Below, one piece after another: positions 35,080 to 55,915 of a stretch of 64,000 bases of DNA. Under the pieces are notes generated by a model. It had not been told where the DNA came from and made no database searches. It worked only from the letters and a program-made list of their open reading frames with translations. How positions within the stretch are numbered: position 1 is the first letter of the stretch; each line of letters starts with the position of its first letter. The stretch comes from Bacteroidota bacterium (GTDB lineage: Bacteria > Bacteroidota > Bacteroidia > JACCXN01). The position numbers and the translations under genes were made by a program. Location of the stretch: positions 14,393 through 78,392 of the forward strand of contig JACCXN010000035.1 in assembly GCA_013696965.1 (NCBI GenBank), written 5' to 3'.

Positions 35080-35445
35080 CTATTCCAGAAGGTTTTTTAC
35101 TGTTTTAATAAGCAATTGCGGAGAAAAAGGTTTTAACAGGCAGGCATCAGCCTGGGTAATAGTTGCTTGTAATATTTCTTTTTCCATTCCACTTAGAATA
35201 ATTACAGGAACAGGTTTTTTATACAAATGATTTTTAACGTGGTCAATTATTTCAAATCCTCCTGAGAAAGGAAGCATAATGTCTGTTATTACTAAATCAA
35301 AATCATCATCATTAAATTTATGGATGGCTTTTTTTACGGTTTGTACAGCACTTACTTTATAGTTTTCAAGTTCAAGAAAGCTTACTATTGATTGTCGAAT
35401 AAAAGGCTCATCCTCAATGACTAAAATATTTTTTATTTTCCCCAT
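35080..35445 (-). CDS. single-domain response regulator (receiver only)
   Basis: 121 aa. VIEDEP with the acidic pair. Phospho-acceptor Asp context LVITDIMLP. Conserved Lys at LLKPF. Confidence 0.85.
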   Translation of the reverse strand: MGKIKNILVIEDEPFIRQSIVSFLELENYKVSAVQTVKKAIHKFNDDDFDLVITDIMLPFSGGFEIIDHVKNHLYKKPVPVIILSGMEKEILQATITQADACLLKPFSPQLLIKTVKNLLE

Positions 35446-36131
35446 TAAATTATAATATTTACACTGGTTCCTAATATATAATGAGTGGCAGGTACATTAA
35501 TGTTTTGAATGGTGCGCAACATATAATAGACCGAAATACTGGTGTATTTATTAAATGAATAATCCATCCCTAATTTAAATCTTTGCTGAACCCATTTTGT
35601 ATCGGGAAATTCATCCATAGTATTAAAAAATTCAACTGCAGCGTATGGAGTCCATTGCTTATTTAATTCAACATTAGCCTGAATTTTATGTCTTAAAAAT
35701 TGTTGTGGAATCCTTCCATTTTCTGATGAAAACATATCCTTATAATTCATCTGGTATCTCAACCTATAACTTAATTCTATTGGCTTCCATTCATTTTTTA
35801 AAATCAAATCAGTTACTAACCTGTGTCTTGAGCTAAATGCAAAGTCTCTTTGAACATTTTGGCTGTTTCGGTAACTCATTCCTATTCTCAAATGCTTATT
35901 GAATTTATAGGCAATACCAACATCAATAAATCCTTTCTGAACTTCTGTGGCGTTGTTTCTAAGCCTTATTTCCTGCCTAATATTTATACTTGTTCCAGGG
36001 GCTATTTCTTTCTTTAATTTCAATCCAGACCAAATAAGAAAGTCTTGTGTGTTTTGACTTTTTACTTGATCTGGCCCCAACCAAAAAAACAAGAGCAAAA
36101 TGAGAATTATTACTGTTTCTTTTTTCATCAA
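35445..36131 (-). CDS. secreted beta-rich protein, DUF2490-like predicted outer-membrane protein
   Basis: 228 aa with a signal peptide. Alternating hydrophobic Y/F-rich strands (GIAYKF, IGMSYRN, LSYRLRYQMNY, GMDYSF, ISVYYML) typical of a small beta-barrel. The DUF2490 assignment is from memory. Its start overlaps the receiver gene's stop. Confidence 0.4.
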   Translation of the reverse strand: MMKKETVIILILLLFFWLGPDQVKSQNTQDFLIWSGLKLKKEIAPGTSINIRQEIRLRNNATEVQKGFIDVGIAYKFNKHLRIGMSYRNSQNVQRDFAFSSRHRLVTDLILKNEWKPIELSYRLRYQMNYKDMFSSENGRIPQQFLRHKIQANVELNKQWTPYAAVEFFNTMDEFPDTKWVQQRFKLGMDYSFNKYTSISVYYMLRTIQNINVPATHYILGTSVNIII

Positions 36132-36155
36132 TGTTTATGTTTTAAGTAACACATC

Positions 36156-36848
36156 TTAATTTTGTAAAGAAGATTGTGACGCTGCTTTTATACTTGTTTT
36201 TTCCACCAAAACTTTTTGCTGTTTAGTATCCAAATAATATATTTTTACACTTGCACTATCTTTCATGAAATTGATTTTACTAATTGAAATTCTGTGGATA
36301 TTAAGTCCAGTTCTTGCTTTTAAGTCTTCAATTAATAGGGCATGATTTTCTGGTTTTATCATTTCTATGTTTTCATACTGCACCTTTTGCGTATTCTCAT
36401 TTTTCATAAATAGATTCCCATCAAGAAAATAAGCGCAAGTCAATATAATTGAATTGATTAAAATAGTTTCGAAATATGTTCCTTTGGCAACAGCACTAAT
36501 TAGTCCTATTGCAATAACAATAAACAAATAGGTCATATCCTTTGCTGAAATATTGACAGTACGATATCTTAACAAAGAAAAAACAGCGAATAGTCCGAAG
36601 GCAGCTCCCATAGAAAGTTCAACCTTATTTAACAGATAGGTAATGATAAATATCACCACATTAAAAAGAAAGTAGGTGAAAAAATAATCTTTTTTCTTAT
36701 AAATGGGATAGTAAATTAGCCTGATGAGTATTAGTACAGAAAGGAAATTAATTGCTAACCGTAAAAAAAATTTTGCTCCTATTTTGTCAAATAGTTCAAA
36801 ATTTGGAAATACATCATTGGTTTGAGTAATAACTTCAAGAAGTAACAT
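36156..36848 (-). CDS. DUF4956 domain-containing membrane protein
   Basis: 230 aa. N-terminal four-TM region, then a soluble C-terminal domain. Overlaps the upstream VTC-domain gene by 14 nt. VTC-DUF4956 pairing is a recurring arrangement in Bacteroidota. Confidence 0.65.
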   Translation of the reverse strand: MLLLEVITQTNDVFPNFELFDKIGAKFFLRLAINFLSVLILIRLIYYPIYKKKDYFFTYFLFNVVIFIITYLLNKVELSMGAAFGLFAVFSLLRYRTVNISAKDMTYLFIVIAIGLISAVAKGTYFETILINSIILTCAYFLDGNLFMKNENTQKVQYENIEMIKPENHALLIEDLKARTGLNIHRISISKINFMKDSASVKIYYLDTKQQKVLVEKTSIKAASQSSLQN

Positions 36849-37632
36849 ACATTATTTTTTTTAAGGTTAATAATTTGGGTTTGAATAGGTTTTGTTTTAT
36901 TTTGGGGAATAATTGTGTAATTCCAAAACAATATTTGCTTATTGATATTTTTCTTATTTTGTTTTTATTCATTACTTGATGAAAAAATGATTTAATAGAA
37001 TTACCGTCTTGTTTCAATTCAGCAATTACCAGGAATTCAAATGTTTTTTCACCCTGCTCATTTTTCATTGTTAAATCAATATCAAGGGTTACTCTTTCAG
37101 TTAAATCGTTATTGACTAATGTAATGCGAGAATAGTTTATCCAGCAGACGGGCTTAAGACTTTCAGCCTTGATATTTGCAATAGATCGTAGAAATTTTTT
37201 AGCAGCTTTGCTTAAAGACTGTTCAATACTTTCTAGCTTAATTCTGTTTTTTATTGTTCTGGATTTATTGTTTTTAAACTTGATTTCAAAAAAATTCAGA
37301 TTTGACTCAACATATTTTCTACATCTTATTTTATACCGGTTTGATTTTCCATTGTGATGATTCAGGTATAAATCATATTTTTCCGTATCAAAATACAGTG
37401 TCTCGTAATTTGAGATTCTGTTATTCATAATTTCCAAAACTTTATAATTTTCTTTTAAATTTTGAAGAACTATTTTCAATTTATCCAAATGAAAAACAAA
37501 TTTTATATCAGTTCTATTCATTAACTTGACATTGTCCATTTCATTTAAATTTAAAGACCTGAAATCCTTTAATTCTTGCATAATTTGTTCAAAGAGGACT
37601 GAATCATTTGTCATAATCGAGCGGGTTTGCAT
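36835..37632 (-). CDS. VTC-domain (CYTH-like) protein, annotated in databases as polyphosphate polymerase domain-containing protein
   Basis: 265 aa. Block ...TDIKFVFHLDKL...ETLYFDTEKYDLYLNHHNGKSNRYKIRCRKYVESNLNFFEIKFK fits the triphosphate-tunnel VTC/CYTH beta-strand pattern (alternating K/R and E on strands, the YFDT motif). Confidence 0.7.
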   Translation of the reverse strand: MQTRSIMTNDSVLFEQIMQELKDFRSLNLNEMDNVKLMNRTDIKFVFHLDKLKIVLQNLKENYKVLEIMNNRISNYETLYFDTEKYDLYLNHHNGKSNRYKIRCRKYVESNLNFFEIKFKNNKSRTIKNRIKLESIEQSLSKAAKKFLRSIANIKAESLKPVCWINYSRITLVNNDLTERVTLDIDLTMKNEQGEKTFEFLVIAELKQDGNSIKSFFHQVMNKNKIRKISISKYCFGITQLFPKIKQNLFKPKLLTLKKIMYVTS

Positions 37633-41085: not shown

Positions 41086-41418
41086 ATGGGTGCAACAAAG
41101 ACCGAACATTTTACCGACAAACAAAATTCCATTGCGACACTTATCAAAGCTCTCGGACATCCTGCAAGGATTGCTATCGTAGAGTATTTAATGAAAGTGG
41201 ATGCTTGTATTTGTGGCGACATTGTAAACGAACTTCCTCTTTCACAGCCGACAGTTTCGCAGCACTTGAAAGAACTCAAGACGGCTGGACTGATTAAAGG
41301 AAGTGTCGAGGGCAATTCAATTTGTTACTGCATAGACGAGAATGCAATCGGTAAACTTCAAGACTACTTCGCAAACATTTCAGACAAATTAGAAAAAAAG
41401 AAAGATAATTGTTGCTAA
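41086..41418 (+). CDS. arsR: ArsR/SmtB family metalloregulator
   Basis: 110 aa. HTH LGHPARIAIVEYL... and the metal-site CICGD. The region is visibly GC-richer than its flanks. Confidence 0.9.
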   Translation: MGATKTEHFTDKQNSIATLIKALGHPARIAIVEYLMKVDACICGDIVNELPLSQPTVSQHLKELKTAGLIKGSVEGNSICYCIDENAIGKLQDYFANISDKLEKKKDNCC

Positions 41419-41434
41419 TTTAAAATTAAACAAA

Positions 41435-41905
41435 ATGAAACTATCTCAATTCAAAAAACATCTTGCCACTATTTCGGCTGTAAACTTTGTTCAGCCCAAC
41501 GGGACTTTTGTTCCCCGACACTTCCACGTCACCGAAGCGGGTTTAACAACCAAACATTTCATTGACTGCGGTGGGACAGTGAGAACTGAAAAGACCATTA
41601 ACTTTCAAGTTTGGGTTGCACAAGACTTTAATCACCGACTTGAACCTAACAAACTTCAAAAAATCATTTCATTATCTGAAAACCTTTTCGGCAACGAAGA
41701 CTTGGAAGTTGAAGTGGAATATCAAACGGAAACCATTGGCAGGTATGGCTTAGACACAAACGGAGAAAACTTTATGCTAACTGCAAAAGCAACCGACTGT
41801 TTGGCAAAAGACAACTGCGGAGTTCCCGAAGCAAAACATAAATTAGAATTATCAGAACTGCCAACCGAAAAATCCTGTTGCTCTCCTGGCGGAGGGTGCT
41901 GTTAA
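41435..41905 (+). CDS. ars-operon-associated protein of unknown function (DUF6428-like) with a Cys-rich C-terminus
   Basis: 156 aa. Lies between arsR and arsC and ends ...KSCCSPGGGCC. The DUF6428 name is from memory. Confidence 0.5.
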   Translation: MKLSQFKKHLATISAVNFVQPNGTFVPRHFHVTEAGLTTKHFIDCGGTVRTEKTINFQVWVAQDFNHRLEPNKLQKIISLSENLFGNEDLEVEVEYQTETIGRYGLDTNGENFMLTAKATDCLAKDNCGVPEAKHKLELSELPTEKSCCSPGGGCC

Positions 41906-42043
41906 TATATGAAAGCGTTTATCATCAAATATAAAAAGCCAATCATCATCACAACTTCCATAACAGTTTTGCAACTCATTTTCGGCTTTGACCCAAAGTT
42001 TTGCATCATCAACATTGTTTGGCTGTTTGTATAAAATTAAACT

Positions 42044-42473
42044 ATGACACAGACAAAAGTGTTATTTCTCTGCATACACAATTCGGCACGAAGCCAAATG
42101 GCAGAAGCGTATCTGAAAAAATTCGGTGGCGACAAGTTCTTAGTAGAAAGTGCAGGACTTGAAGCGGGTAAACTCAATCCACTAGCAGTAGAAGTTTTCG
42201 AAAGAGGACGGAATTGACATTTCAAACAACCAGACAAAAGACGTGTTCGACTTTTTCAAAGAAGGGCGACTGTATCAATATGTGGTGACCGTTTGCGATG
42301 AAGCAAGTGCAGCTCGTTGCCCAATCTTTCCCGGACTACACAAAAAAATTAATTGGAGTTTTGCAGACCCTTCCGCATTGACAGGCACACACGAAGAAAA
42401 ACTTGCAGCGACAAGAGTCGTTCGTGACAAAATTAAAAATGCGGTTCAGACTTTCATAAAAGAGTTAAATTAA
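42044..42473 (+). pseudogene. arsC: arsenate reductase (LMW-PTP / thioredoxin-coupled type) interrupted by a +1 frameshift in a T-run
   Basis: Frame 1 (42044..42217) gives [24 protein letters not shown]...[14 protein letters not shown], with the CX5R P-loop. Frame +1 continues as ...[45 protein letters not shown]... through to 42473. The join is in gttttcg at 42194-42200, consistent with one extra T. Confidence 0.8.
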
Positions 42474-42742: not shown

Positions 42743-43006
42743 ATGGAAATATTAAGAACATCAAATTTATTATTTCTTACAGGCGAAGGCAAATCAGAAG
42801 TTTTTTCAGGTGTATATTATAATGGCACAATGTATTACGACTTTGCAAATGTGAAATTTATAAATAATTCTGGAATTGCAGATCTTATTGACCTGGTAAA
42901 GTTGTGGATGGAAATGGGAACAGATGTGAAATTTATTCATGTTAATGAAGAGATTCAAAAGAAATTTAAGGATTCTGGGCTCGATCAAATAATTTGTTGT
43001 GAATAA
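42743..43006 (+). CDS. short STAS-like (anti-sigma-factor-antagonist-like) protein
   Basis: 87 aa. ...ANVKFINNSGIADLIDLVKLWMEMGTDVKFIHVNEEIQKKFKDSGLDQI resembles the C-terminal two-thirds of a STAS domain (DLSxVxFIDSSGLxxL...G..L.L.xV...V...F...GL). An in-frame stop immediately upstream prevents any N-terminal extension. Confidence 0.35.
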   Translation: MEILRTSNLLFLTGEGKSEVFSGVYYNGTMYYDFANVKFINNSGIADLIDLVKLWMEMGTDVKFIHVNEEIQKKFKDSGLDQIICCE

Positions 43007-43027
43007 TTTATCTGAACAATTCATATT

Positions 43028-44914
43028 TTGAAAACATACTATTTCAGCAGATTTGAAAATCGAAAACCTTACCCTGAAATTAAGAACAATAAATACAGGA
43101 CGTTTTTCTTTCAATTTTTTGCAATTCTAACAATAGGATTTGGTTTGACTTATTTGAATTGGAGATGGCAATACTCCCTTAATTATGATGCGCTTTGGTT
43201 TGCATTACCACTTGTTGTTGCCGAAACCTTGAGTTTTGTTGGTACTTGTCTTATTATTTATAATATGTGGTCAAACAAAGATCCAATAAAGCATGCTCCT
43301 GTTCATTTTTTATCTGAAATTGAAGACTTACATGGCCGTTTAGATAGACCTGTTAAAATTGATGTACATATAGCAACTTATAATGAGGAAGTTGAAATTG
43401 TCCGATACAGCATCAGAGATGCCAAAAATATGGTTTATCCTTTTGCTGATGTGCCTATTAACATTTATATACTTGATGATGGAAGACGTGATGGCAGGAA
43501 TGCTAATCAGGAAAACATGAAAAAAGTTGCAGAAGAGGAGGGGGCCGGATACATAATAAGAGATAATAATGAGGGTTATAAAGCAGGTAATTTAAAGAAT
43601 GGACTTGAAAAGACAAATGGAGATATTTTCGTTATTCTTGATGCTGATACACGTCCATTTCCTGATTTTTTGGTGAATACCATAGGATATTTCCGGAATA
43701 AAAAAGTTGCATGGGTACAAACCCCACAGTGGTTTTATGATACCACTCCTGGAAAAAATATTAGTACTGTACTTGCTCAAAAATTTGGAAAAACAGGAGC
43801 ATTTTTAGGCAAGGTGTCTGATAAATTATTTGGTAAAATTAAAACAGGAGAAGATATTTTTGGGAATGATCCTCGAATGTTTTATGATGTTTTACTTAGA
43901 AGAAGAAATAATTACAATGCTGCATTTTGTTGTGGTGCAGGTTCTATCCATAGACGAGAGGCAGTTATGAGCCTTGCCGTAAGCGGATATGGTGAGGAGG
44001 TAAATCAAGGGATTAAAAATGTTCTGAAAAAAAACAAAATTATTGCAAAACAGGAATACAGAGAACATAAAAAATCTTTAATTATAGAAAAACATCTTAT
44101 CCCTTTTAAGTTCCATGCTTCAGAGGATATTTATACCTCAATGATGTTGCATGCAGACCGTAAAAATGATTGGCAAAGTATTCAGCATCATAAGGTAGAA
44201 TGTAAAATGTTGTCTCCTCAGGATATCGATACAAGTGTGAAACAAAGAACCAGGTATGCTGCAGGGTCACTGGATATTGCTTTTAAAGATAATCCTTTAG
44301 TTTTTAAAGGATTAACGATTTGGCAACGATTGGCATATTTTTCTACAATTTGGTCATATATTTCTCCAACATGGATTATTGTTTTTTTATTGAGTCCCAT
44401 AGTGTTTTTTTTCACCCAAGCATTACCTGTAGCTGCCTATAGTTTTGATTTTTTTAAATTTTTTATACCTTTTCAAATTCTCAATACAATTTCTATGTCA
44501 ATTGCATGCTGGGGCATTAATAATTCCAGAGGCGATCAGTATTATATATCTTGTTTTTGGTTAATGTTACTTGCTTTATATTCAGCAATTCGTGGAGAAA
44601 ATGTGAAATTTAACGTAACCCCAAAAATAAGGCAAGGAGCAAATCAATATATAAAGCATATATGGCCTCATATTGCTATAATTTTGCTCACTTTGCTTGG
44701 CATTTTTTATAATGTATTTCTTTTGGGTATTGACGCTCATCCTACAGCTTCTGGCTTTGTTTCCAATGCTTTTTGGGGAATGTTTAATATCTACAATTTA
44801 AGCATAATGATAAGAGCGGCTTTTTGGACTGAAAAAGAAGCCGAATTGGAAAGCGGAACAATTTTAGAAAACAAAATTGAAAATTCAGTTGTTTCTAATG
44901 TCTCTATGGATTGA
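43028..44914 (+). CDS. processive family-2 glycosyltransferase, cellulose-synthase-like, lacking a PilZ domain
   Basis: 628 aa. Two N-terminal TM helices, then a GT-A domain with IYILDDGRRD and VILDADTRP (D, DxD), SEDIYTSMMLH (TED-like) and QRTRYAAG (a QxxRW variant), then four or more C-terminal TM helices. Confidence 0.85.
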   Translation: MKTYYFSRFENRKPYPEIKNNKYRTFFFQFFAILTIGFGLTYLNWRWQYSLNYDALWFALPLVVAETLSFVGTCLIIYNMWSNKDPIKHAPVHFLSEIEDLHGRLDRPVKIDVHIATYNEEVEIVRYSIRDAKNMVYPFADVPINIYILDDGRRDGRNANQENMKKVAEEEGAGYIIRDNNEGYKAGNLKNGLEKTNGDIFVILDADTRPFPDFLVNTIGYFRNKKVAWVQTPQWFYDTTPGKNISTVLAQKFGKTGAFLGKVSDKLFGKIKTGEDIFGNDPRMFYDVLLRRRNNYNAAFCCGAGSIHRREAVMSLAVSGYGEEVNQGIKNVLKKNKIIAKQEYREHKKSLIIEKHLIPFKFHASEDIYTSMMLHADRKNDWQSIQHHKVECKMLSPQDIDTSVKQRTRYAAGSLDIAFKDNPLVFKGLTIWQRLAYFSTIWSYISPTWIIVFLLSPIVFFFTQALPVAAYSFDFFKFFIPFQILNTISMSIACWGINNSRGDQYYISCFWLMLLALYSAIRGENVKFNVTPKIRQGANQYIKHIWPHIAIILLTLLGIFYNVFLLGIDAHPTASGFVSNAFWGMFNIYNLSIMIRAAFWTEKEAELESGTILENKIENSVVSNVSMD

Positions 44915-44942
44915 TTTTGTTACTTAATTTAAAAATTATACT

Positions 44943-46292
44943 ATGTCTGGGGAAAGTCAGGAAAAGCAAAATCAGATGAAGTTCCTTTTTAAACCCTTGT
45001 TTTTTATTTTTGCACTACTTACTGTAACTTATATAGTTCTTTATGTAGAAAAATTGAAACCTTCCGATTTAAAGCCTTTCGGAGATTTATTTGTAAAGGA
45101 TGATGTAATACTTAAATCTCAAAGATATCCTATTAAATCTGCCTCTGGTTACCTTACCAGAGAAGAATTTATTTACGCGAATATTGCATGGAAATATTTT
45201 GAAAATAATTACGATCAAAAGACAGGTTTTGTAAATGGAAAAGATACCAGCTCAATATTTACTATTAAAGATCTTACCAGTTATTTGATGGGTATGTTCT
45301 GCGCCCTTGAAATTGGAATTGTGGATTCAACAGAAGTGGATAGTAGGATGAATAAACTGTTTATATCTCTTGATAAAATACCACTTTATGAAAATAAACT
45401 TCCAAATAAAAAATATAACACAGGATCATTAAAAATGCTTGATGAAAATGGAAATACCTCTGAAAATGGATTTGGTTGGTCGGCTCTTGATATAGGAAGG
45501 TTTTTTAATTTTGTAAATAAAGTAAATCTACAATATCCACAATACCAGCCAAAAATCAGAAAAATTATTAAACGGTGGAAAATGCATGAAATGATTGAAA
45601 ATGGAAACCTTAAAGGAATGGTTTTCCAGAGCAACAAAAGAAAATATAAATTAATCCAGGAGGGTCGCTTAGGATATGAGGAGTATTGTGGCAAAGCTTT
45701 ATATAAATCAGGCTTTGATGTTACCGAAGCCATTAGCTACAGGGACTTTATAAAGTTCATTGACATTTATGGATACAGGATAGCAGCAGACACCAGGGAA
45801 GTAAGAAAAAAAAATTCACACAACTATGTACTTAGTGATCCCTATTATTTAGATGGATTAGAAAACGGCTGGGACATAAATTCCCGGGAACTTGCATTTA
45901 GGGTTTTTATGGTGCAAAAAGCAAGATATATTGATACAGGAATTTTAACAGCAACAGGAGAAGATTATACAGATAATACTGCTAATTATGTTTATAACTC
46001 TATTTATGCGGATTTTAGAACCTGGACCTGCTATGATGAAATGGGTAAGAAAAGGAACGATTTAAAAATGCTTAGCACAAAAACTTCTTTTGCATGGTAT
46101 GTTTTATATGAGGATGAATATGCAAATTTATTGTTTAACAATGTTAAGGATTTATATGATCCTCAGAGAGGATGGTATTCGGGAAGGTACGAAGTTTCGG
46201 GAAAAATAAACAAATCCATTTCTGCTTCTACCAATGCAATAGTATTGGAAGCATTAAATTATAAAATGAACGGAACTATTATTCAGTTTTAA
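44943..46292 (+). CDS. DUF3131-like membrane-anchored protein with a predicted (alpha/alpha)6 glycosidase-like fold
   Basis: 449 aa. N-terminal TM anchor (LFFIFALLTVTYIVL). Remainder W/Y/G-rich with a GFGWSALDIGRF block. Lies 28 bp downstream of the GT2 gene. The DUF3131 assignment and its association with beta-1,2-glucan enzymes are from memory. Confidence 0.5.
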   Translation: MSGESQEKQNQMKFLFKPLFFIFALLTVTYIVLYVEKLKPSDLKPFGDLFVKDDVILKSQRYPIKSASGYLTREEFIYANIAWKYFENNYDQKTGFVNGKDTSSIFTIKDLTSYLMGMFCALEIGIVDSTEVDSRMNKLFISLDKIPLYENKLPNKKYNTGSLKMLDENGNTSENGFGWSALDIGRFFNFVNKVNLQYPQYQPKIRKIIKRWKMHEMIENGNLKGMVFQSNKRKYKLIQEGRLGYEEYCGKALYKSGFDVTEAISYRDFIKFIDIYGYRIAADTREVRKKNSHNYVLSDPYYLDGLENGWDINSRELAFRVFMVQKARYIDTGILTATGEDYTDNTANYVYNSIYADFRTWTCYDEMGKKRNDLKMLSTKTSFAWYVLYEDEYANLLFNNVKDLYDPQRGWYSGRYEVSGKINKSISASTNAIVLEALNYKMNGTIIQF

Positions 46293-46364
46293 ATAAAAGT
46301 AAATGTTTTTGCACATTTTGTGCAAAGGCTTTCTCAAATGTAATTTAATTCAAGCATTTTTTAT

Positions 46365-46775
46365 TTGAAAAAAAATGGCCGGATTTTTCATTCTCTTATT
46401 GAGATCAATGAAAACACAATGAAAAAAAGCCTGATTATTTTCACTATACTTATCCCATTAATTGTAATGGTAATTGCATTTAATTGTAGAAATAAAAAAC
46501 CTGATTCGATCAAGAATATAAATCCATTTAAATATGCTGCTCTAAGTGTAGAAACCTTTCATATAAAGGATAAAGGATGGGGATTTGATATTTATGTAAA
46601 TGGCAAAGCATTTATTCATCATGAAAAACCCCAGTTAAGTTCTCTTGAGGGATATGCAAATGAACAAGATGCTGTAAAAGTTTCAAAACTTGTAATAAGC
46701 AAAATCAGATCAAACAAGTTACCACCTGTTATTTCCTTTTATGAATTAGATAGTTTAGACATTAGGTATAAATAA
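46365..46775 (+). CDS. DUF4907-like small membrane-anchored protein; probable start at MKKSLIIF (about nt 46419)
   Basis: Single TM anchor, then ...HIKDKGWGFDIYVNGKAFIHHEKPQ...GYANEQDAVKVSKLVISKI, which resembles the conserved GWGYDIY...G...FATKEDAEKVGKLVI core of DUF4907. Confidence 0.5.
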   Translation: MKKNGRIFHSLIEINENTMKKSLIIFTILIPLIVMVIAFNCRNKKPDSIKNINPFKYAALSVETFHIKDKGWGFDIYVNGKAFIHHEKPQLSSLEGYANEQDAVKVSKLVISKIRSNKLPPVISFYELDSLDIRYK

Positions 46776-49004: not shown

Positions 49005-50435
49005 ATGAAAACTAAGAAAAATAAGCTTACTGATTCTTTTCAGTTGCTAAATCCAACTGAGCGCCTAATAAATAAGAAAAAGGCAGAAATGATGGGAAAG
49101 GCCAATAGAGGCAATCTGGATATGCTTATCCATGAATTGCATGTATATCAAGTTGAACTTGAAATTCAGAATGAGGAATTGAAAAGGGCAAAAAAAGAGA
49201 TCGAAATTTCTAGAAATAAATATGCCGATTTATATGATTTTTCTCCTATTGGATATTTTACTTTTGATCAGGAAGGGTTTATTCAGGAGGTAAATTTGGC
49301 TGCCAGTAAAATTCTTAGAATAAACAGAGATTTTTTAATTCATAAAATGTTTCACATTTACATTGTTCCTGAATTTTGGGATGATTTCAATGATTTTTTA
49401 AAAGAAACCATGCAAAGTGATGTAAAGCAGACTTGTGAAATCCAGATGCTAAATAAAGATGGTGAGGTTTTCCATGCTCAATTAGAAGGAATTAAAATTA
49501 GTGGAAATGGAAATAATCCCGATTGCTTCAGGGCTGCACTTATCGATATTACGGATAGAAAAATAGCTGAGAAAGCATTGAAAAAAAACACCCATGAATT
49601 GCTATTTAATAAAAAACTACTTGAACGAAAATCCCTTGAACTTGCTCAGGTATTTATTCAACTCGCAAAGTCTGAAAGGGATTTAAGGGAATTGAATGTT
49701 AACAAGGATAAGTTTTTTGCAATCATAGCCCATGATTTAAGAAATCCCTTCTCAGTTATGCTTGGTCTAACAAATATCCTTGTCAATGATTATGAACAAA
49801 TGGATAAAAGGCAGGTATTAGAGATTCATCAAAAATTAGATTTAACAGTAAACAGAGTTTATTCATTGTTGAATAATTTATTAAAATGGTCAGTTATTCA
49901 GTTTGGAAAAATAGATTATAAGCCAGAAGAAATAAATCTTAATGAATTAATAGTAGAAAGTTTAAAATTACTGCAACATTATGCTGAGAACAAGCAAATA
50001 ACAGTTAAAACCACGGTTGATGAAAATATTGCTGTAGTCGCAGATAAGAATATGTTGGAATCCGTGATTCAAAATTTAATAACAAATGCCATAAAATTCA
50101 CAGCCATTGGAGGTGACGTTCGAATTGAGGCAACTGAGAAAGAAAAATTCACTAAAATAAGTGTTTTGGATACAGGGGAGGGCCTGGATAAAAAAACCTT
50201 AATTAATTTATTTAGAATAGATAAGAAAAACAGTACCAATGGCACTTCAAATGAATCAGGTACAGGTTTAGGTTTGATTTTATGCAAAGAGCTAATAGAA
50301 ATACAGGGTGGAAAGATTTGGGCAGAAAGTGAACCAGGAAAGGGTGGAAAGTTTTCTTTCACATTGCCCAAGAGTGATGAAATACCCAAAATAACTAAGG
50401 AGTTAAAGGCTAAAATAAACAAAAAAACAATTTGA
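49005..50435 (+). CDS. cytoplasmic PAS-domain sensor histidine kinase
   Basis: 476 aa with no TM segment. Coiled-coil. PAS block (YDFSPIGYFTFDQEGFIQEVNLAASKIL). HisKA H-box FFAIIAHDLRNP. HATPase_c N, G1 and G2 boxes (LITNAIKFT, DTGEGL, GTGLGL). Confidence 0.85.
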   Translation: MKTKKNKLTDSFQLLNPTERLINKKKAEMMGKANRGNLDMLIHELHVYQVELEIQNEELKRAKKEIEISRNKYADLYDFSPIGYFTFDQEGFIQEVNLAASKILRINRDFLIHKMFHIYIVPEFWDDFNDFLKETMQSDVKQTCEIQMLNKDGEVFHAQLEGIKISGNGNNPDCFRAALIDITDRKIAEKALKKNTHELLFNKKLLERKSLELAQVFIQLAKSERDLRELNVNKDKFFAIIAHDLRNPFSVMLGLTNILVNDYEQMDKRQVLEIHQKLDLTVNRVYSLLNNLLKWSVIQFGKIDYKPEEINLNELIVESLKLLQHYAENKQITVKTTVDENIAVVADKNMLESVIQNLITNAIKFTAIGGDVRIEATEKEKFTKISVLDTGEGLDKKTLINLFRIDKKNSTNGTSNESGTGLGLILCKELIEIQGGKIWAESEPGKGGKFSFTLPKSDEIPKITKELKAKINKKTI

Positions 50436-50653: not shown

Positions 50654-53191
50654 ATGGTGTATAAATCCCAGGAGGAAATAGAAATGAATAAAGATATTAT
50701 TCTTGAAAAAGTGCTTGAAGAAAGCATGGTTGAAGTTTTAGAAAAAACTATTTTAAACAATTCAAACAATTCAATTACTTCATTAAAAAAAGAAAAAACA
50801 CATGCCCCGGGTTGGCCAGGCATTGCTCCAAGATGGACATCAGCAGATAAAAACGGAGTAGGTACATCCCTAAACGTTGCCAGTAAAGTTTGGTTTACCA
50901 TGAGCCATGGAACCATTAATGAAATTTATTATCCCCAAGTTGATCAAGCTTGCACCAGAGATATGGAATTTATTGTAACTGATGGTAAAAAATTCTTTTC
51001 TGAAGAAAAAAGAAATACAAGCCATCATATTGAGTATCTAGCAGAAGGTGTTCCTGGTTTTCGTTTAATTAACACTTGTCATGAAGGTAATTACAGAATT
51101 GAGAAAGAAATTATTACTGATCCTTACAGGGATACTTTTTTACAACGAATAAAATTCGTGCCTTTAAAAAAAGATATTTCTGATTATAAACTATTTATTT
51201 TATTAGCTCCACATATCGGGAATTATGGTTCAGGTAATACCGGGTGGACTGGGGATTATAAAGGCATGCCAATGTTGTTTGCCGAAAGAGGTAATGCTCT
51301 TGCCCTTGCGTGCTCAATTCCTTGGTTGAATTATTCTGTTGGTTTTGTGGGAACCTCTGATGGCTGGCAGGACCTTAAAAGCCATAAGTTTATGAAATGG
51401 ATCTACAAGCGGGCAGAAAATGGAAATATCGCCATGATAGCTGAAATTGATTTAAAAGAATCTGAAAAAAGCGAAAGCGAAATCATCATTGCTATAGGAT
51501 TTGGCAGGAATAGCGCTGAAGCAGGACTAAGAGCCAGGTCAAGTATTTTAGAGGGTTTTGATACAGCAAAAAAAGTATATATAAAGGAATGGCTTAACTG
51601 GCAAAAAGATCTTTTTAATTTTAAAACAGCCAAAATATCGGCAAGAGATTTATACCGTGTGAGTACTTCTATTTTAAGAATTCATGAATCAAAAAGACAT
51701 CCAGGAGGTTTTATTGCAAGCTTGTCAATTCCTTGGGGCCATTCACGTGGAGACGATGATTTGGGAGGCTATCATTTGGTCTGGCCAAGAGATTTGGTTC
51801 ATACGGCAGGAGGTTTATTAGCAGCAAAAGCGGATACTGATGCAAGAAGAGTTCTAACTTATTTAATGGTTACGCAGGAGGAAGACGGTCATTGGCCACA
51901 GAATATGTGGATGGATGGTTTTCCCTATTGGACAGGTGTGCAAATGGATCAGGCAGCGAGTCCAATCCTTCTTATAGATTTATCTATTAGAGAAGGCGCT
52001 CTTCAATTAGGAGATTTAAAAAGCCTTTGGCCTATGGTTAAAAAAGCAGCTTCCTATCTTGTTTCTCATGGCCCCACTACCGATCAGTGCAGATGGGAAG
52101 AAAACGCAGGTTACACTCCCTACACACTCGCGGTTGAAATAGCGGCCCTACTAATAGCAGCCGACTGTGCAGAAGTCAATCACCATCCTGAAATAGCAAT
52201 TTATTTACGTGAAACAGCTGATTATTGGAATGAAAGCATAGAAAGATGGACTTATGTTACTGATACTCCATTATCAAGAAGAGTAGGAGTTGAGGGTTAT
52301 TACATTCGTGTTTCCACGGCTGAGAATGGGGATGGTAAATTCCCAAAGGAAGATATAATTACAATAACCAACCGTCCTAAGGGTGCCAATAAAATAAATT
52401 CTAGGGATCTTGTAAGTGTTGATGCACTTGCCTTGGTAAGATTTGGATTAAGGGATGCAAAAGATCAAAGGATACTTAATACTATTAAGGTTATTGATTC
52501 ATTATTAAAAAAGGAAACACCAAGTGGCCCCTGTTGGTACAGATATAATAATGATGGTTATGGAGAGCAAAGTGATGGAACTCCATTTAATGGAACTGGA
52601 ATAGGAAGACCTTGGCCTTTATTATCAGGTGAAAGGGCTCATTACGAAGTAGCAGCAGGAAATTATAAGGGTGCTTATAAATTATTAAAAACCATGGAAA
52701 GTTTCGCAAATGAAGGCGGTATGCTCCCTGAACAAATTTGGGATAGCGAGGATATTCCTTCTAAAGAACTTTTCTTTGGAAAAGCTACCGGTTCTGCCAT
52801 GCCTCTTGCATGGGCGCATGCAGAATACATTAAGCTTTGTCGTTCCATAACCATGAAAAAGGTTTTTGATATGCCCCCACAAACCAAGGAAAGATACATT
52901 GATGAAAAAACAAAATCAACATTTGTAGTGTTCAAATTTAACAGCAAATGTAAAAGAATACCTGCAGGTAAAAATTTCAGGATTGAATCAATGGCCAAAA
53001 TGAAAATAAGATGGACTAATGACAACTGGCAAACTTCAATGGATTCTTATTCATTTGATACGGGACTAAAGGTTCATGTTGTTGATTTAATAACAAATGA
53101 ATTACCAAAAGGAGCAAAAATAATTTTTACATTTTATTGGACAGAATGCAATAAGTGGGAAGGTAAAGATTTTGAAGTGAAAATAGTTTGA
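50654..53191 (+). CDS. glycoside hydrolase family 15 protein (bacterial glucoamylase / glucodextranase type) with N- and C-terminal beta-sandwich extensions
   Basis: 845 aa. Central (alpha/alpha)6 domain with GH15 blocks: GGYHLVWPRDLVHTAG, RWEENAGYTPYTLAVE, LPEQIWDSEDIPS. Confidence 0.85.
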   Translation: MVYKSQEEIEMNKDIILEKVLEESMVEVLEKTILNNSNNSITSLKKEKTHAPGWPGIAPRWTSADKNGVGTSLNVASKVWFTMSHGTINEIYYPQVDQACTRDMEFIVTDGKKFFSEEKRNTSHHIEYLAEGVPGFRLINTCHEGNYRIEKEIITDPYRDTFLQRIKFVPLKKDISDYKLFILLAPHIGNYGSGNTGWTGDYKGMPMLFAERGNALALACSIPWLNYSVGFVGTSDGWQDLKSHKFMKWIYKRAENGNIAMIAEIDLKESEKSESEIIIAIGFGRNSAEAGLRARSSILEGFDTAKKVYIKEWLNWQKDLFNFKTAKISARDLYRVSTSILRIHESKRHPGGFIASLSIPWGHSRGDDDLGGYHLVWPRDLVHTAGGLLAAKADTDARRVLTYLMVTQEEDGHWPQNMWMDGFPYWTGVQMDQAASPILLIDLSIREGALQLGDLKSLWPMVKKAASYLVSHGPTTDQCRWEENAGYTPYTLAVEIAALLIAADCAEVNHHPEIAIYLRETADYWNESIERWTYVTDTPLSRRVGVEGYYIRVSTAENGDGKFPKEDIITITNRPKGANKINSRDLVSVDALALVRFGLRDAKDQRILNTIKVIDSLLKKETPSGPCWYRYNNDGYGEQSDGTPFNGTGIGRPWPLLSGERAHYEVAAGNYKGAYKLLKTMESFANEGGMLPEQIWDSEDIPSKELFFGKATGSAMPLAWAHAEYIKLCRSITMKKVFDMPPQTKERYIDEKTKSTFVVFKFNSKCKRIPAGKNFRIESMAKMKIRWTNDNWQTSMDSYSFDTGLKVHVVDLITNELPKGAKIIFTFYWTECNKWEGKDFEVKIV

Positions 53192-53234
53192 AAGACAATC
53201 AATAAATATAAATAGCTGCTTTAAAAAAGTAATA

Positions 53235-54524
53235 ATGAAAATACCTGAGGTTTTGATGTTAGGGTGGGAATTTCCACCTGTTATAAATGGCGGTTTAGGC
53301 ATTGCTTGTCATGATTTGTCCATCGCTATGGCTGAATTTGCAAATGTTACAATGATTATACCCAAAGCAATACCCGGATTTAATACTGGGAAACTTAATG
53401 TAATTGGATTAAATAACATAGATGTTAATTCATTTGAGGATATTTCAAGGCAAAATGAATATGGTTCTCTCAATGAGATTTACAAAATACCAATGGATCT
53501 TGACCCTTATTATTCTACTGATTACACTTCAGAGAGGAAAACAGGTTATATAAACGAGGTAATAATTCAAGGCAAGAAATACAGTATTTTTGATATTGAC
53601 AACCTTTATGGTGGAGATGTAATCCATAAAGTTATTCAGTTTGGAAATATTGCTGCAAAGTTATCCGAAAGATTGAATTTCGATATCATTCATACCCATG
53701 ATTGGATGACAATGGTAGCAGGTATGGAAATAAAAGCGCGTAGTGGAAAACCACTGGTTATGCATATTCATTCCCTTGAAGTGGACAGGAGCGGGCCCGA
53801 AAGCAAAGGATGGATGTATGATATAGAAAAGCAAGGTATGGAGGCTGCAGATTTGCTAATGCCTGTGAGTAGATTTACTGCTGAAAATATTGTGAAGTAT
53901 TATGGGATTGATCCTGCCAAAATTGTACCAGTTCATAATGGAATAAGACCAGTAGTTCCATTTAAATCTGTAAGACCATATAAGGAGAAAACAGTTTTAT
54001 TTATTGGCAGATTAACCAGGCAGAAAGGTCCAGAATATTTTCTTCAGATTGCCTCTAAAATTTTAAAACACAACCCAGATGTACGTTTTGTTGTGGCAGG
54101 AGCAGGGGAGAGTTTTAGAAAAATGTTGTTGGATAGTTCATATAGCAAAATTGGTAACAGATTTCATTTAACTGGATTTATCAATCAGCAGGAAATAAAA
54201 CATTTACTTTCTATTTCAGATGTGTATTTAATGCCCTCTGTTTCTGAACCATTTGGACTTTCTGCAGTTGAAGCAGCTCAATTTCAGATTCCCTGCGTAA
54301 TTTCCAAGCAGTCCGGAGTTGCTGAGGTTTTATCCGGCTCACTGAAATTTGATTTCTGGGATGTTGACAGAGCTGCTGATTATGTTTTAAATCTAATTGA
54401 TAATCCTATGTTAAATTCAAAGGTTGTTGATGATGCAAATAAAAATCTTAAACTCATAAGTTGGAATTTAACAGCCAAAAAAGTTGTTCAGACTTACCGG
54501 GATTATAAATTTTGCAACAATTAA
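53235..54524 (+). CDS. GT-B glycosyltransferase, glycogen/alpha-glucan synthase-like (GT4/GT5)
   Basis: 429 aa. N-terminal MLGWEFPPVINGGLGIA resembles the glycogen-synthase ExxPxxKxGGLGDV start. The C-terminal Rossmann half carries E...E motifs (PSVSEPFGLSAVEAA). Confidence 0.75.
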   Translation: MKIPEVLMLGWEFPPVINGGLGIACHDLSIAMAEFANVTMIIPKAIPGFNTGKLNVIGLNNIDVNSFEDISRQNEYGSLNEIYKIPMDLDPYYSTDYTSERKTGYINEVIIQGKKYSIFDIDNLYGGDVIHKVIQFGNIAAKLSERLNFDIIHTHDWMTMVAGMEIKARSGKPLVMHIHSLEVDRSGPESKGWMYDIEKQGMEAADLLMPVSRFTAENIVKYYGIDPAKIVPVHNGIRPVVPFKSVRPYKEKTVLFIGRLTRQKGPEYFLQIASKILKHNPDVRFVVAGAGESFRKMLLDSSYSKIGNRFHLTGFINQQEIKHLLSISDVYLMPSVSEPFGLSAVEAAQFQIPCVISKQSGVAEVLSGSLKFDFWDVDRAADYVLNLIDNPMLNSKVVDDANKNLKLISWNLTAKKVVQTYRDYKFCNN

Positions 54525-54567
54525 ATAATAAATAACAGAAATTTTATAACCATTTAATCCAGAACCT

Positions 54568-55803
54568 ATGCCTTCAGTATGTTTTTATTTTCAAGTGCAC
54601 CAACCCTTCAGGTTAAAAAGATATTCGTTTTTTAATATAGGAAATACCCCTATGTATGAAGATGATAAATTAAACAAAGAGGTTCTTGACAAAGTCTCGG
54701 CTAAATGCTATATAAAGACAAATCAGAAAATGCTTGAATTAATTGAGCGTCATAATGGGAAGTTTAAGATCAGTTATTCCATTAGTGGTATGGCTATTGA
54801 ACAATTTGAAAGATACAGACCCGATGTTTTAGAATCCTTTGTAGCCTTGGCTAAAACAGGATGCGTTGAATTTTTAGCTGAAACCTATAACCATTCCCTG
54901 AGTTATTTGTTTTCAAAGGATGAGTTCAAAAGACAGGTTCAAAAACATGAGAAGAAAATTAAAAAATATTTCGGACAAACTCCTAAGGTGTTCAGAAATA
55001 CTGAATTAATCTTTAATAATGAACTTGCAGTTGATATTGAAAAAATGGGTTATAAGGGTATTATTTGTGAAGGAGTTGATAGATTATTAAATGGAAGGTC
55101 TGCAAATTTCCTTTACCAACCTATTGGTACAAGTAAGATAAAAGCATTATTGAAAAATTATAAGCTTTCCGATGATATAGCTTTTCGCTTCTCTGACAAG
55201 AATTGGAGCGAATTTCCATTAACGGCTGATAAATTCAGTCAATGGGCACATACAATTGCAGGGAATGGAGAAGTTATTAATCTTTTTATGGATTATGAAA
55301 CCTTCGGAGAACATCAATGGGAATCCACTGGAGTTTTTGACTTTTTGAATTATATGCCTGAATTCATTTTGAAACACCCTGATTTCGATTTTAAAACTCC
55401 CTCAGAAGTTATTAGCCAGTATCCAGTTAGAGGAGATTACGATGCTCATGATTTTATTTCATGGGCAGATACCGAAAGGGATTTGTCAGCATGGTTAAGT
55501 AATTCATTGCAAGAGGAAGCAATGCAAAGAATTTTTTCTCTGGAGCATTTAGTTAAGGAAGCAGATGATCAGGATCTACTCAATGTTTGGGAAAAACTTC
55601 AAACATCTGACCATTTCTATTATATGTGTACTAAATTTTGGAATGATGGGGATGTACATAAATATTTCAGCCCCTATGATTCTCCCTATGATGCTTACAT
55701 CTATTACATGAATGTGTTTTGCGATTTCGAAACCAGGGTAAAAAATTCAAGCAAGAATAAACTGGTAATGATTCCGCAAGAATTTGAACTTGAACTTGTT
55801 TGA
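54568..55803 (+). CDS. glycoside hydrolase family 57 protein
   Basis: 411 aa. Starts CFYFQVHQPFRLKRY, which is GH57 region I with HQP. Later EFLAETYNH and DYETFGEHQW match the GH57 catalytic regions (the E-x-F-G-E-H nucleophile region). Confidence 0.8.
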   Translation: MPSVCFYFQVHQPFRLKRYSFFNIGNTPMYEDDKLNKEVLDKVSAKCYIKTNQKMLELIERHNGKFKISYSISGMAIEQFERYRPDVLESFVALAKTGCVEFLAETYNHSLSYLFSKDEFKRQVQKHEKKIKKYFGQTPKVFRNTELIFNNELAVDIEKMGYKGIICEGVDRLLNGRSANFLYQPIGTSKIKALLKNYKLSDDIAFRFSDKNWSEFPLTADKFSQWAHTIAGNGEVINLFMDYETFGEHQWESTGVFDFLNYMPEFILKHPDFDFKTPSEVISQYPVRGDYDAHDFISWADTERDLSAWLSNSLQEEAMQRIFSLEHLVKEADDQDLLNVWEKLQTSDHFYYMCTKFWNDGDVHKYFSPYDSPYDAYIYYMNVFCDFETRVKNSSKNKLVMIPQEFELELV

Positions 55804-55915
55804 GAAATGGTTTTAGAATAAGCTTAAAGGATATTTAAAGCACATTTTGAATAAGAATCCTGAATGAAAATCTTAAGAACAATTAATAATATAAACTTTA
55901 TGGGGAGGAAAAATA

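Follow-up and report, generated by a model that had tools for sequence, protein, structure and literature searches.

A conserved pair of a BcsA-like GT2 synthase and a DUF3131 protein as a probable beta-glucan-making system in a Bacteroidota bacterium

A cluster of four open reading frames (ORFs) was analysed in a 64,000-nt stretch of DNA (the window) from contig JACCXN010000035.1 of a Bacteroidetes/Bacteroidota metagenome-assembled genome (MAG; GCA_013696965.1), and gene coordinates are given as positions in this window (Table 1). The ORFs encode, in this order, a STAS-like protein, a glycosyltransferase of family 2 (GT2), a DUF3131 protein and a DUF4907 protein. The second and the third genes are the real unit of the cluster, and this GT2-DUF3131 pair is probably a new bacterial way of making a beta-glucan. 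A preliminary description of the same DNA had placed four co-directional ORFs here with these domain labels; all four were found again on the + strand, and Pfam backed the labels clearly for GT2, DUF3131 and DUF4907 and at the borderline for STAS. The intergenic gaps are 21, 28 and 72 bp, respectively, the last on the assumption of a TTG start at 46365. In the NCBI annotation of the same MAG, the first three ORFs are called identically, under the product names 'STAS domain-containing protein', 'glycosyltransferase' and 'DUF3131 domain-containing protein', respectively. A scan of the cluster for sigma-70 promoters and terminators gave results at background level, the sigma-70 model being ill-suited to Bacteroidota promoters. 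No functional study of DUF3131, DUF4907, PF11329 or PF16250 was found in literature full text, where phrases containing '1,2' are not searchable, and none was found for the combination of cellulose synthase, antagonist and OpgC. DUF3131 occurs there in gene lists only, including a Klebsiella paper in which the same locus composition is given in passing (PMC12974863). No paper assigning a product was found, and the region is, as had been proposed, an uncharacterised membrane glycan-synthase system.

Table 1. Positions of the features in the window and, where a locus handle is given, in related loci.
Feature	Position (nt)	Strand	Remark
STAS-like ORF	42743-43006	+	87 aa; Pfam STAS borderline
FINNSG of the STAS-like protein	42857-42874		
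GT2 ORF	43028-44914	+	628 aa; TTG start; Pfam GT2 families
GT2 DDG motif	43469-43483	+	
GT2 DAD motif	43637-43654	+	
GT2 FCCGAGS motif	43925-43945	+	
GT2 variable insert of about 48 aa preceding SED	43973-44116	+	from conservation across orthologues
GT2 SED motif	44120-44140	+	
GT2 QRTRY motif	44243-44257	+	
DUF3131 ORF	44943-46292	+	449 aa; Pfam DUF3131
DUF3131 N-terminal transmembrane anchor	44982-45047	+	residues 14-35
DUF3131 juxtamembrane motif EKxxPSD	45048-45092	+	conserved
DUF3131 D183, candidate catalytic	in 45474-45503	+	conserved, 152/157
DUF3131 E246, candidate catalytic	in 45669-45686	+	conserved
DUF3131 E307, candidate catalytic		+	conserved
DUF3131 E340, candidate catalytic	in 45948-45965	+	E or D in 156/157
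DUF3131 residues 347-349	45981-45998		A-N-Y
Inverted repeat TTTGCAC-N6-GTGCAAA	46307-46326		no T-run
DUF4907 ORF	46419-46775	+	118 aa from ATG 46419; 46365-46775, 136 aa from TTG
VTC-domain, DUF4956 and DUF2490 genes	35445-37632	-	
ArsR gene	41086-41418		
DUF6428 gene	41435-41905		
Arsenate reductase gene	42040-42473		frameshifted; C-terminal 76 aa (42243-42473) in other frame
PAS histidine kinase gene	49005-50435		
Alpha-glucan (glycogen-type) cluster	50654-57670		
Conserved protein of about 285-340 aa, examples	L013:9337-10185; L005:5163-6026; L038:1678-2700 (-); C-terminus of L001:787-3906 (-)		
Secreted glycoside hydrolase / NTP-transferase insertions, examples	L067:2195-6092; L044:2066-5996; L022:3886-6081; L038:13167-13961		
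H-NOX and hybrid histidine kinase genes, example	L001:11333-13619		

The GT2 is laid out as two transmembrane (TM) helices, a cytoplasmic GT-A domain and then about 4-5 TM helices. Pfam gave Glycos_transf_2 at E=1.4e-16 and Cellulose_synt weakly. The motifs are ILDDG (residues 148-152), YKAGN (184-188), DAD (205-207), QTPQWF, FCCGAGS (300-306), SED (365-367) and QRTRY (406-410). By phmmer, BcsA chains of the PDB were matched at E=1.5e-32, and the alignment spans the TM pair before the GT domain, the DDG, KAGN, DxD, QTP, FFCGS, TED and QxxRW motifs and the last TM helices, and stops at the point at which PilZ would follow in BcsA. No PilZ match was obtained by Pfam in the GT2, whose sequence runs on for only about 30 residues past its last TM helix; the BcsA alignment and Pfam together confirm the earlier reading of processive-synthase motifs without PilZ. 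Across 76 orthologues each of the catalytic motifs is conserved to at least 95%, and the last of them reads QRxxY throughout and never has W (Q406 and Y410, at least 95% conserved). The GT2 therefore departs from processive BcsA-type synthases at QxxRW and shares with them DDG, DxD, the TED-type base and the FFCGS-type motif; the Trp to Tyr change across the family indicates an altered acceptor site. With the CelA model TIGR03030 and with PRK11498 it scored 221 bits (cut-off 699) and 158 bits (cut-off 992), respectively, and it stays far below the NCBIfam equivalog cut-offs. The MdoH models gave about 22 bits or less, so it is not of the OpgH family, and by NCBIfam it is not of the PgaC or NodC type either. 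Judged from its sequence, the GT2 is a distinct BcsA-like subfamily with an altered acceptor-stacking residue and no receptor for cyclic di-guanosine monophosphate (c-di-GMP).

The 449-aa protein is a full-length member of Pfam DUF3131 (PF11329; E=1.1e-118, 397 bits, profile positions 2-367 of 367). Its AlphaFold2 model (mean predicted local distance difference test, pLDDT, 89.2; predicted template modelling score, pTM, 0.85) has a TM helix at the N-terminus followed by an (alpha/alpha)6 barrel, and model and Foldseek agree with the protein having been described as a membrane-anchored (alpha/alpha)6 carbohydrate-active fold. Fold-comparison values for the model were 30.3 with Agrobacterium Cgs, 27-28 with glycoside hydrolase (GH) family GH144, 26.7 with GH192, 26.4 with GH194 and 22.8 with GH162, and then fell to 20.6 with GH15, 15.3 with GH9 and 13-18 with GH8, BcsZ-type included, and the Foldseek ranking agrees with that order. 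The barrel has the fold of the SGL clan (GH-S: GH144, GH162, GH189 and GH192-194), to which it is closest. At sequence level, single-sequence phmmer against the PDB returned only a chance match to RuvC (E=0.12), a profile of 35 DUF3131 sequences was needed to see GH189 (8wy1 at E=1e-5), and hhalign of DUF3131 against GH193 plus GH189 gave Prob 96.6% and E=6e-10.

Two known families of the clan were tried for the DUF3131 protein and rejected. The long alpha5 helix and the extra helices between alpha4 and alpha5, which are conserved only in GH189 (PMC12102758), are missing from it. For GH193, the characterised enzyme SkSGL is labelled 'DUF3131 domain-containing' by NCBI (PMC12102758, Data S4), is of the same clan and is homologous in the N-terminal part of the barrel, as the above hhalign probability indicates. 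In a Pfam scan, however, GH193 sequences matched PF11329 marginally, at 17-25 bits over the first ~130 positions, and carried a C-terminal PF10091 at 40-56 bits, whereas the window protein matches the whole of PF11329 and lacks PF10091; the A1 profile gave GH193 sequences at most 22 bits. Core DUF3131 accordingly represents a branch of the beta-1,2-glucanase clan that is uncharacterised, and the claim that the partner family of the synthase is unrelated to known ones has to be dropped, because it belongs with the SGL clan. In an exhaustive search (E<=1e-30), the core family comprised 441 clusters at 50% identity. Some relatives are fusions of 2-4 tandem DUF3131 domains (P0130, 1820 aa; P0131, P0132 and others), and many others, 660-790 aa long, carry about 300 unexplained residues at the N-terminus. 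From the signal-anchor, the DUF3131 domain is predicted to be periplasmic, and a Vibrio paralogue bearing a lipoprotein signal peptide supports this location.

Residue conservation in DUF3131 was scored over 157 orthologues and paralogues, and S180, D183, R186, E246, D283, R285, E307, D311, E340 (E or D), Y351, W361, Y393 and N431 were near-invariant. In profile-profile alignment, D183 falls in the S-x-V-D column, where the general base is proposed to lie in GH144 and GH192-194. By sequence alignment alone, E340 falls in the column of TiCGS E1442, which is the nucleophile of the GH189 transglycosylase (PMC10834661) and is replaced by Pro, Ala or Ser in GH193 hydrolases (PMC12102758). The placement of D183 and E340 favours an active enzyme, possibly a retaining transglycosylase, and catalytic activity of the DUF3131 protein is considered likely.

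The distribution of the pair was determined in a genome scan with the 35-sequence DUF3131 profile on one genome per GTDB species. At least 549 species genomes encode a DUF3131 relative (at least 549 loci), and pairing was assessed in the best 80 of these loci. A GT2 gene lies directly upstream of DUF3131 on the same strand in 74 of the 74 loci having more than 2.1 kb of upstream DNA, namely 16/16 from Bacteroidota/Chlorobiota and 58/58 from others, including Gamma-, Beta- and Deltaproteobacteria and Gemmatimonadota. The gaps are mostly -10 to +30 bp with often overlapping stop and start codons, which fits translational coupling, and 2-4 DUF3131 paralogues occur per locus. The adjacency is far beyond chance, and the two proteins very probably act jointly on one beta-glycan. 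The co-conservation expected from the preliminary description thus holds for the GT2-DUF3131 pair and does not hold for the four-gene set, in which STAS and DUF4907 are not universal.

A third component is found in most of the related loci. In 73 of 81 GT2-DUF3131 loci, a protein of about 285-340 aa is conserved that carries a signal peptide, contains the motif PW(N/D)PDFTYGFGYxDWRP..Y.NY..NRF in duplicate and ends in Trp or Phe; this protein gave no Pfam, NCBIfam or PDB match and is probably an outer-membrane beta-barrel of the system. This component is not part of the set as first described, and the window is without it: neither a homologue of this protein nor OpgC was found in the 64 kb. 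Homologues of OpgC occur in 6 loci and also in the Klebsiella version of the locus (PMC12974863). In 38 loci an NTP-transferase with an LbH domain is placed between the STAS and kinase genes. Genes for secreted glycoside hydrolases are further insertions in proteobacterial loci, and none of these accessory genes was found in the window.

The 87-aa protein 5' of the GT2 matched Pfam STAS at E=1.1e-4 and 22.3 bits, just under the cut-off of 22.6, over profile positions 42-97 of 106; NCBIfam SpoIIAA was matched at E=1.3e-5, and an hhalign comparison with STAS proteins from proteobacterial loci of this type gave Prob 79% and E=1.6e-5. It covers the C-terminal two-thirds of the STAS fold only, its N-terminus being shortened, and it has FINNSG where the proteobacterial orthologues have FMDSSG, so that Asp-Ser of the phosphorylation site is replaced by Asn-Asn. 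No RsbW-like kinase or PP2C was seen in the 64-kb window beyond generic receiver and kinase domains. Lacking the phospho-Ser, the kinase and the phosphatase, the window STAS cannot act as a classical partner switch. The idea of a partner-switch regulator, which had been suggested for it, is nevertheless backed by most proteobacterial loci, where the full module is present. In loci outside Bacteroidota, the pair is preceded by partner-switch genes, with STAS bearing canonical FMDSSG in 55/63, an RsbW/SpoIIAB-like kinase in 53/63 and a response-regulator-PP2C in 41/63; no sigma factor was seen among the genes of the inspected loci. In the genome scan, STAS turned up in one Bacteroidota/Chlorobiota locus out of 18. 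Orthologues of 87-102 aa nevertheless lie immediately 5' of the GT2 in four relatives, L084 (69% identity, syntenic), L085, L086 and L002, and in these four and the window the STAS-like gene is kept without kinase or phosphatase. Its retention beside the synthase after loss of the switch enzymes suggests STAS itself as an effector contacting the synthase.

The non-Bacteroidota loci frequently have H-NOX and histidine-kinase genes nearby. In loci of the Thiotrichales type, the cluster is flanked by genes for an H-NOX (HNOB) protein and a hybrid histidine kinase (L001, L020, L027, L035, L042, L048, L057, L058 and L063), an arrangement suggesting that the response-regulator-PP2C / STAS switch takes its input there from the sensing of nitric oxide or gases. 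The proteobacterial loci are like the partner switches SpoIIAA/AB/E and RsbV/W/U in having a DSSG STAS, an RsbW-like kinase and a response-regulator-PP2C, here beside the synthase, whereas the window differs from these switches by the shortened STAS, NN in place of DS, and the missing kinase and phosphatase partner. The Syp system, in which SypA and SypE control the Syp polysaccharide of Vibrio fischeri, is likewise not known to involve a sigma factor.

The pair was compared with three known synthesis systems and belongs to none of them. In Cgs, polymerase and processing reside on one protein, with a GT84 polymerase and a GH94 length-control domain, and the GH189 domain has a long helical insertion and is cytoplasmic; here the two functions would be split over two proteins, the polymerase is a BcsA-like GT2, GH94 is absent, and the DUF3131 domain is without the insertion and predicted to be periplasmic, so that no ABC (ATP-binding cassette) exporter would be needed. 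OpgH with OpgG/OpgD, which makes osmoregulated periplasmic glucans (OPG), is alike in combining a GT2 of the membrane with an enzyme of the periplasm that cuts or cyclises beta-1,2-glucan, a role that we infer for DUF3131. The OpgC homologues of some proteobacterial loci, and the multiple periplasmic paralogues, which recall OpgG and OpgD, add to this likeness. The differences from OPG are that the GT2 is far from OpgH (MdoH ~22 bits against 221 for CelA), that the periplasmic enzyme there is a GH186 beta-sandwich and here an (alpha/alpha)6 protein of the SGL clan, and that most GT2-DUF3131 loci add the probable outer-membrane protein; no OpgG/OpgD-type protein lies beside the pair in the window. 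BcsA-BcsB-BcsZ-BcsC resembles the pair in the channel helices and catalytic motifs of the GT2, in a neighbouring gene for a periplasmic (alpha/alpha)6 enzyme and, as far as most loci are concerned, in an outer-membrane component. The pair differs in having no PilZ or other c-di-GMP module, no BcsB and no TPR-barrel BcsC, a partner that is not GH8, and QRxxY instead of QxxRW. The likeness to BcsA/BcsZ drawn in the preliminary description is therefore one of outline, and the kinship of DUF3131 with the SGL clan makes OpgH plus OpgG/D, or a split Cgs, the better analogy. The system is probably a synthase-dependent glucan machine with a new partner family and a new regulatory logic.

From these likenesses the following mechanism is proposed. 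Gene order, domain identities, fold, conservation and co-occurrence are observed, and the sugar, the linkage, the transglycosylase activity and the contact between STAS and synthase are proposals. The cytoplasmic GT-A domain of the GT2 would polymerise an NDP (nucleoside diphosphate)-hexose, most likely NDP-glucose, and its TM helices would form the channel through which the chain is extruded into the periplasm, as its BcsA homology in both the catalytic and the channel parts suggests. The DUF3131 protein, held in the inner membrane by its single N-terminal helix with the (alpha/alpha)6 domain outside, would take over the growing chain for cleavage or re-ligation; in the preferred reading, it would trim or cyclise a beta-1,2-glucan through transglycosylation. 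The pair would thereby be a split, periplasmic counterpart of Cgs that acts like OpgH with OpgG/D. Its activity would not be controlled by c-di-GMP via PilZ; in Proteobacteria the response-regulator-PP2C / STAS / RsbW-like partner switch would be attached to the synthase, and in the Bacteroidota lineage the shortened STAS may contact the synthase as a phosphorylation-independent subunit. DUF4907 would be a neighbour outside this mechanism. The ancestry of DUF3131 and the OpgC homologues argue for beta-1,2-glucan, since characterised members of the clan act solely on this polymer (PMC12102758). A product containing beta-1,2 linkages is the single most likely one, yet its chance is put somewhat below even, and the full statement of a beta-glucan synthase with a periplasmic processing enzyme, the beta-1,2 reading included, stands just short of an even chance. 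Bolder, and rather unlikely, is a third independent route to beta-1,2-glucans, perhaps cyclic ones, in which a PilZ-less GT2 would extrude a linear chain, a GH189-like, membrane-anchored periplasmic DUF3131 transglycosylase would cut and cyclise it, and STAS would be an on/off subunit working directly on the synthase, phospho-regulated in Proteobacteria and constitutive here.

A number of observations weigh against a processed beta-1,2-glucan. The linkage is not established, and the synthases nearest to the GT2 in sequence are beta-1,4 enzymes. GH9 with CelD_N was found in 13 proteobacterial loci, directly 5' of the GT2 in about 11; GH16 was found in 13 and a GH2-like protein in 26, and the best match of the NTP-transferase of 38 loci is a sub-threshold one to mannose-1-phosphate guanylyltransferase. 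These genes are pointers to beta-1,4, mixed-linkage or even non-glucose products, with GH9 and GH16 leaving room for beta-1,4 or mixed linkage, and the probable outer-membrane protein of 73/81 loci hints at export over a periplasmic glucan. Group 4 of the clan (PgSGL4) is inactive on beta-1,2-glucan (PMC12102758), so that clan membership is no guarantee of specificity. The Glu/Phe/Tyr triad of the clan (E239, F286 and Y367 in XcSGL; PMC12102758, Table S3) is not confidently mappable onto DUF3131, as the C-terminal half of the hhalign alignment is unreliable in both global and local modes. The triad acid is placed there at the non-conserved E262, whereas spacing and conservation point to E246; the Phe segment is a gap; and the Tyr column is residue 348, which is Tyr in 140/157 relatives and Asn (N348) in the window protein. 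The surrounding residues 347-349 read A-N-Y in the window protein and P-Y-F in 140-156/157 relatives, a lineage-specific change. The contact of STAS with the synthase, for its part, is pure inference.

Among the alternatives, a cellulose-like beta-1,4 or mixed beta-1,3/1,4 exopolysaccharide, made as by BcsA or BgsA, survives best, although we consider it unlikely. DUF3131 would then be an obligate periplasmic partner in the role of BcsB and/or BcsZ with a specificity new to its clan, and the polymer would leave through an outer-membrane barrel in most taxa. BcsA being the nearest characterised relative of the GT2, the GH9 gene adjoining its 5' side and the GH16 gene in some loci, a signal-peptide protein fitting an outer-membrane exporter, and a GT2-then-partner order with overlapping codons that recalls bcsA-bcsB all speak for such a product. 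They are set against the absence of any BcsB, BcsC, PilZ or BcsZ homologue, the family-wide Trp to Tyr change in QxxRW, by which the acceptor site is altered, and the confinement of GH9 and GH16 to subsets of proteobacterial loci, these genes never occurring in Bacteroidota.

That DUF3131 is instead a non-catalytic glucan-binding subunit, a chaperone or guide of the nascent chain or a gauge of its length that has lost activity like Group 4, is improbable. It would be in keeping with the constant pairing with a synthase, the strongly conserved juxtamembrane motif, a triad that is not securely mapped, with the window protein deviating at 347-349, and the precedent of PgSGL4 as a clan member without beta-1,2-glucan activity (PMC12102758). 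Yet D183, E246, D283, E307, D311, E340, Y351 and N431 are near-invariant at the catalytic positions of the relatives, and the 2-4 paralogues per locus are better explained by distinct enzymatic steps.

The last gene of the cluster was matched by Pfam DUF4907 at E=6.4e-11. Its homologues are 113-119 aa long and align from the Met at ATG 46419, so this ATG is probably the start, which gives a protein of 118 aa and a gap of 126 bp to DUF3131. The AlphaFold2 model (pLDDT 85) shows a TM helix at the N-terminus and, in addition, a small beta3-alpha domain of three strands and a helix; Foldseek with this model gave no meaningful match (best E=0.25, fragments of human immunodeficiency virus reverse transcriptase), and a sequence search of the PDB gave none. 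Only 9 homologues were found, even by profile search. Apart from the window, DUF4907 follows DUF3131 in L085 only, one of the five closer relatives examined, and L084, the closest and syntenic one, L086, L002 and all of the 80 genome loci lack it. Elsewhere, in L087 the same DUF4907 / radical-SAM / M61-peptidase neighbourhood is present without GT2 or DUF3131, and in L088 and L089 DUF4907 follows a Kelch beta-propeller gene. That all four genes, DUF4907 included, form one obligate functional unit is highly improbable, since this distribution and the lack of STAS in 17/18 Bacteroidota/Chlorobiota loci outweigh the co-directional order with short gaps in the window, the identical four-gene order in L085 and a simple scan showing no terminator between DUF3131 and DUF4907. 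The linkage to the pair not being conserved, DUF4907 does not, contrary to the preliminary description, complete the set and is probably a bystander. The inverted repeat of Table 1 lies 15 bp past the DUF3131 stop, with about 90 bp left to the probable start of DUF4907, and could be a weak terminator or an operator between the two genes.

Other gene neighbourhoods were seen in the window. Upstream of the cluster, downstream of ArsR and DUF6428 genes, lies a gene for an arsenate reductase of the low-molecular-weight protein tyrosine phosphatase (LMW-PTP) type, the reading frame of which is split, either as a pseudogene or by a MAG assembly error. A few kb downstream, an alpha-glucan (glycogen-type) cluster contains a GH15 glucodextranase/glucoamylase (TIGR01535, 778 bits, above cut-off), a GT5/GT4 glycogen-synthase-like protein, GH57 and a PGI-like protein, and is preceded by a PAS histidine kinase gene, which is syntenic in L084; this cluster is unrelated to GT2-DUF3131, yet marks a region rich in glucan metabolism. 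On the minus strand, three co-directional genes encode a VTC-domain protein, DUF4956 and DUF2490, the last weakly like a KdgM porin, and may be a polyphosphate-related module.

To our knowledge, only two enzyme systems are known for the synthesis of beta-1,2-glucan, Cgs and OpgH with OpgG/D. The pair described here combines a channel-forming synthase with the protein that, as far as known, is most closely related to the Cgs cyclase domain. Enzymes degrading beta-1,2-glucan, a rare polymer, are widespread, chiefly in marine bacteria (PMC12102758, PMC11842490), and the GT2-DUF3131 system is itself spread widely among marine Flavobacteriia, Vibrionaceae and Thiotrichales; if the pair is a third route to beta-1,2-glucans, it could be the missing natural source of this polymer for the marine beta-1,2-glucanases. 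A beta-1,2 product would mean a new biosynthetic route with new producers, a function for core DUF3131, probably as a new CAZy family, and a polysaccharide synthase ruled by a STAS partner switch instead of c-di-GMP. With a beta-1,4 or mixed product, DUF3131 would be the first member of its clan not acting on beta-1,2-glucan. The same locus is an accessory block tied to population structure in Klebsiella pneumoniae (PMC12974863), and its function would therefore matter beyond environmental bacteria.

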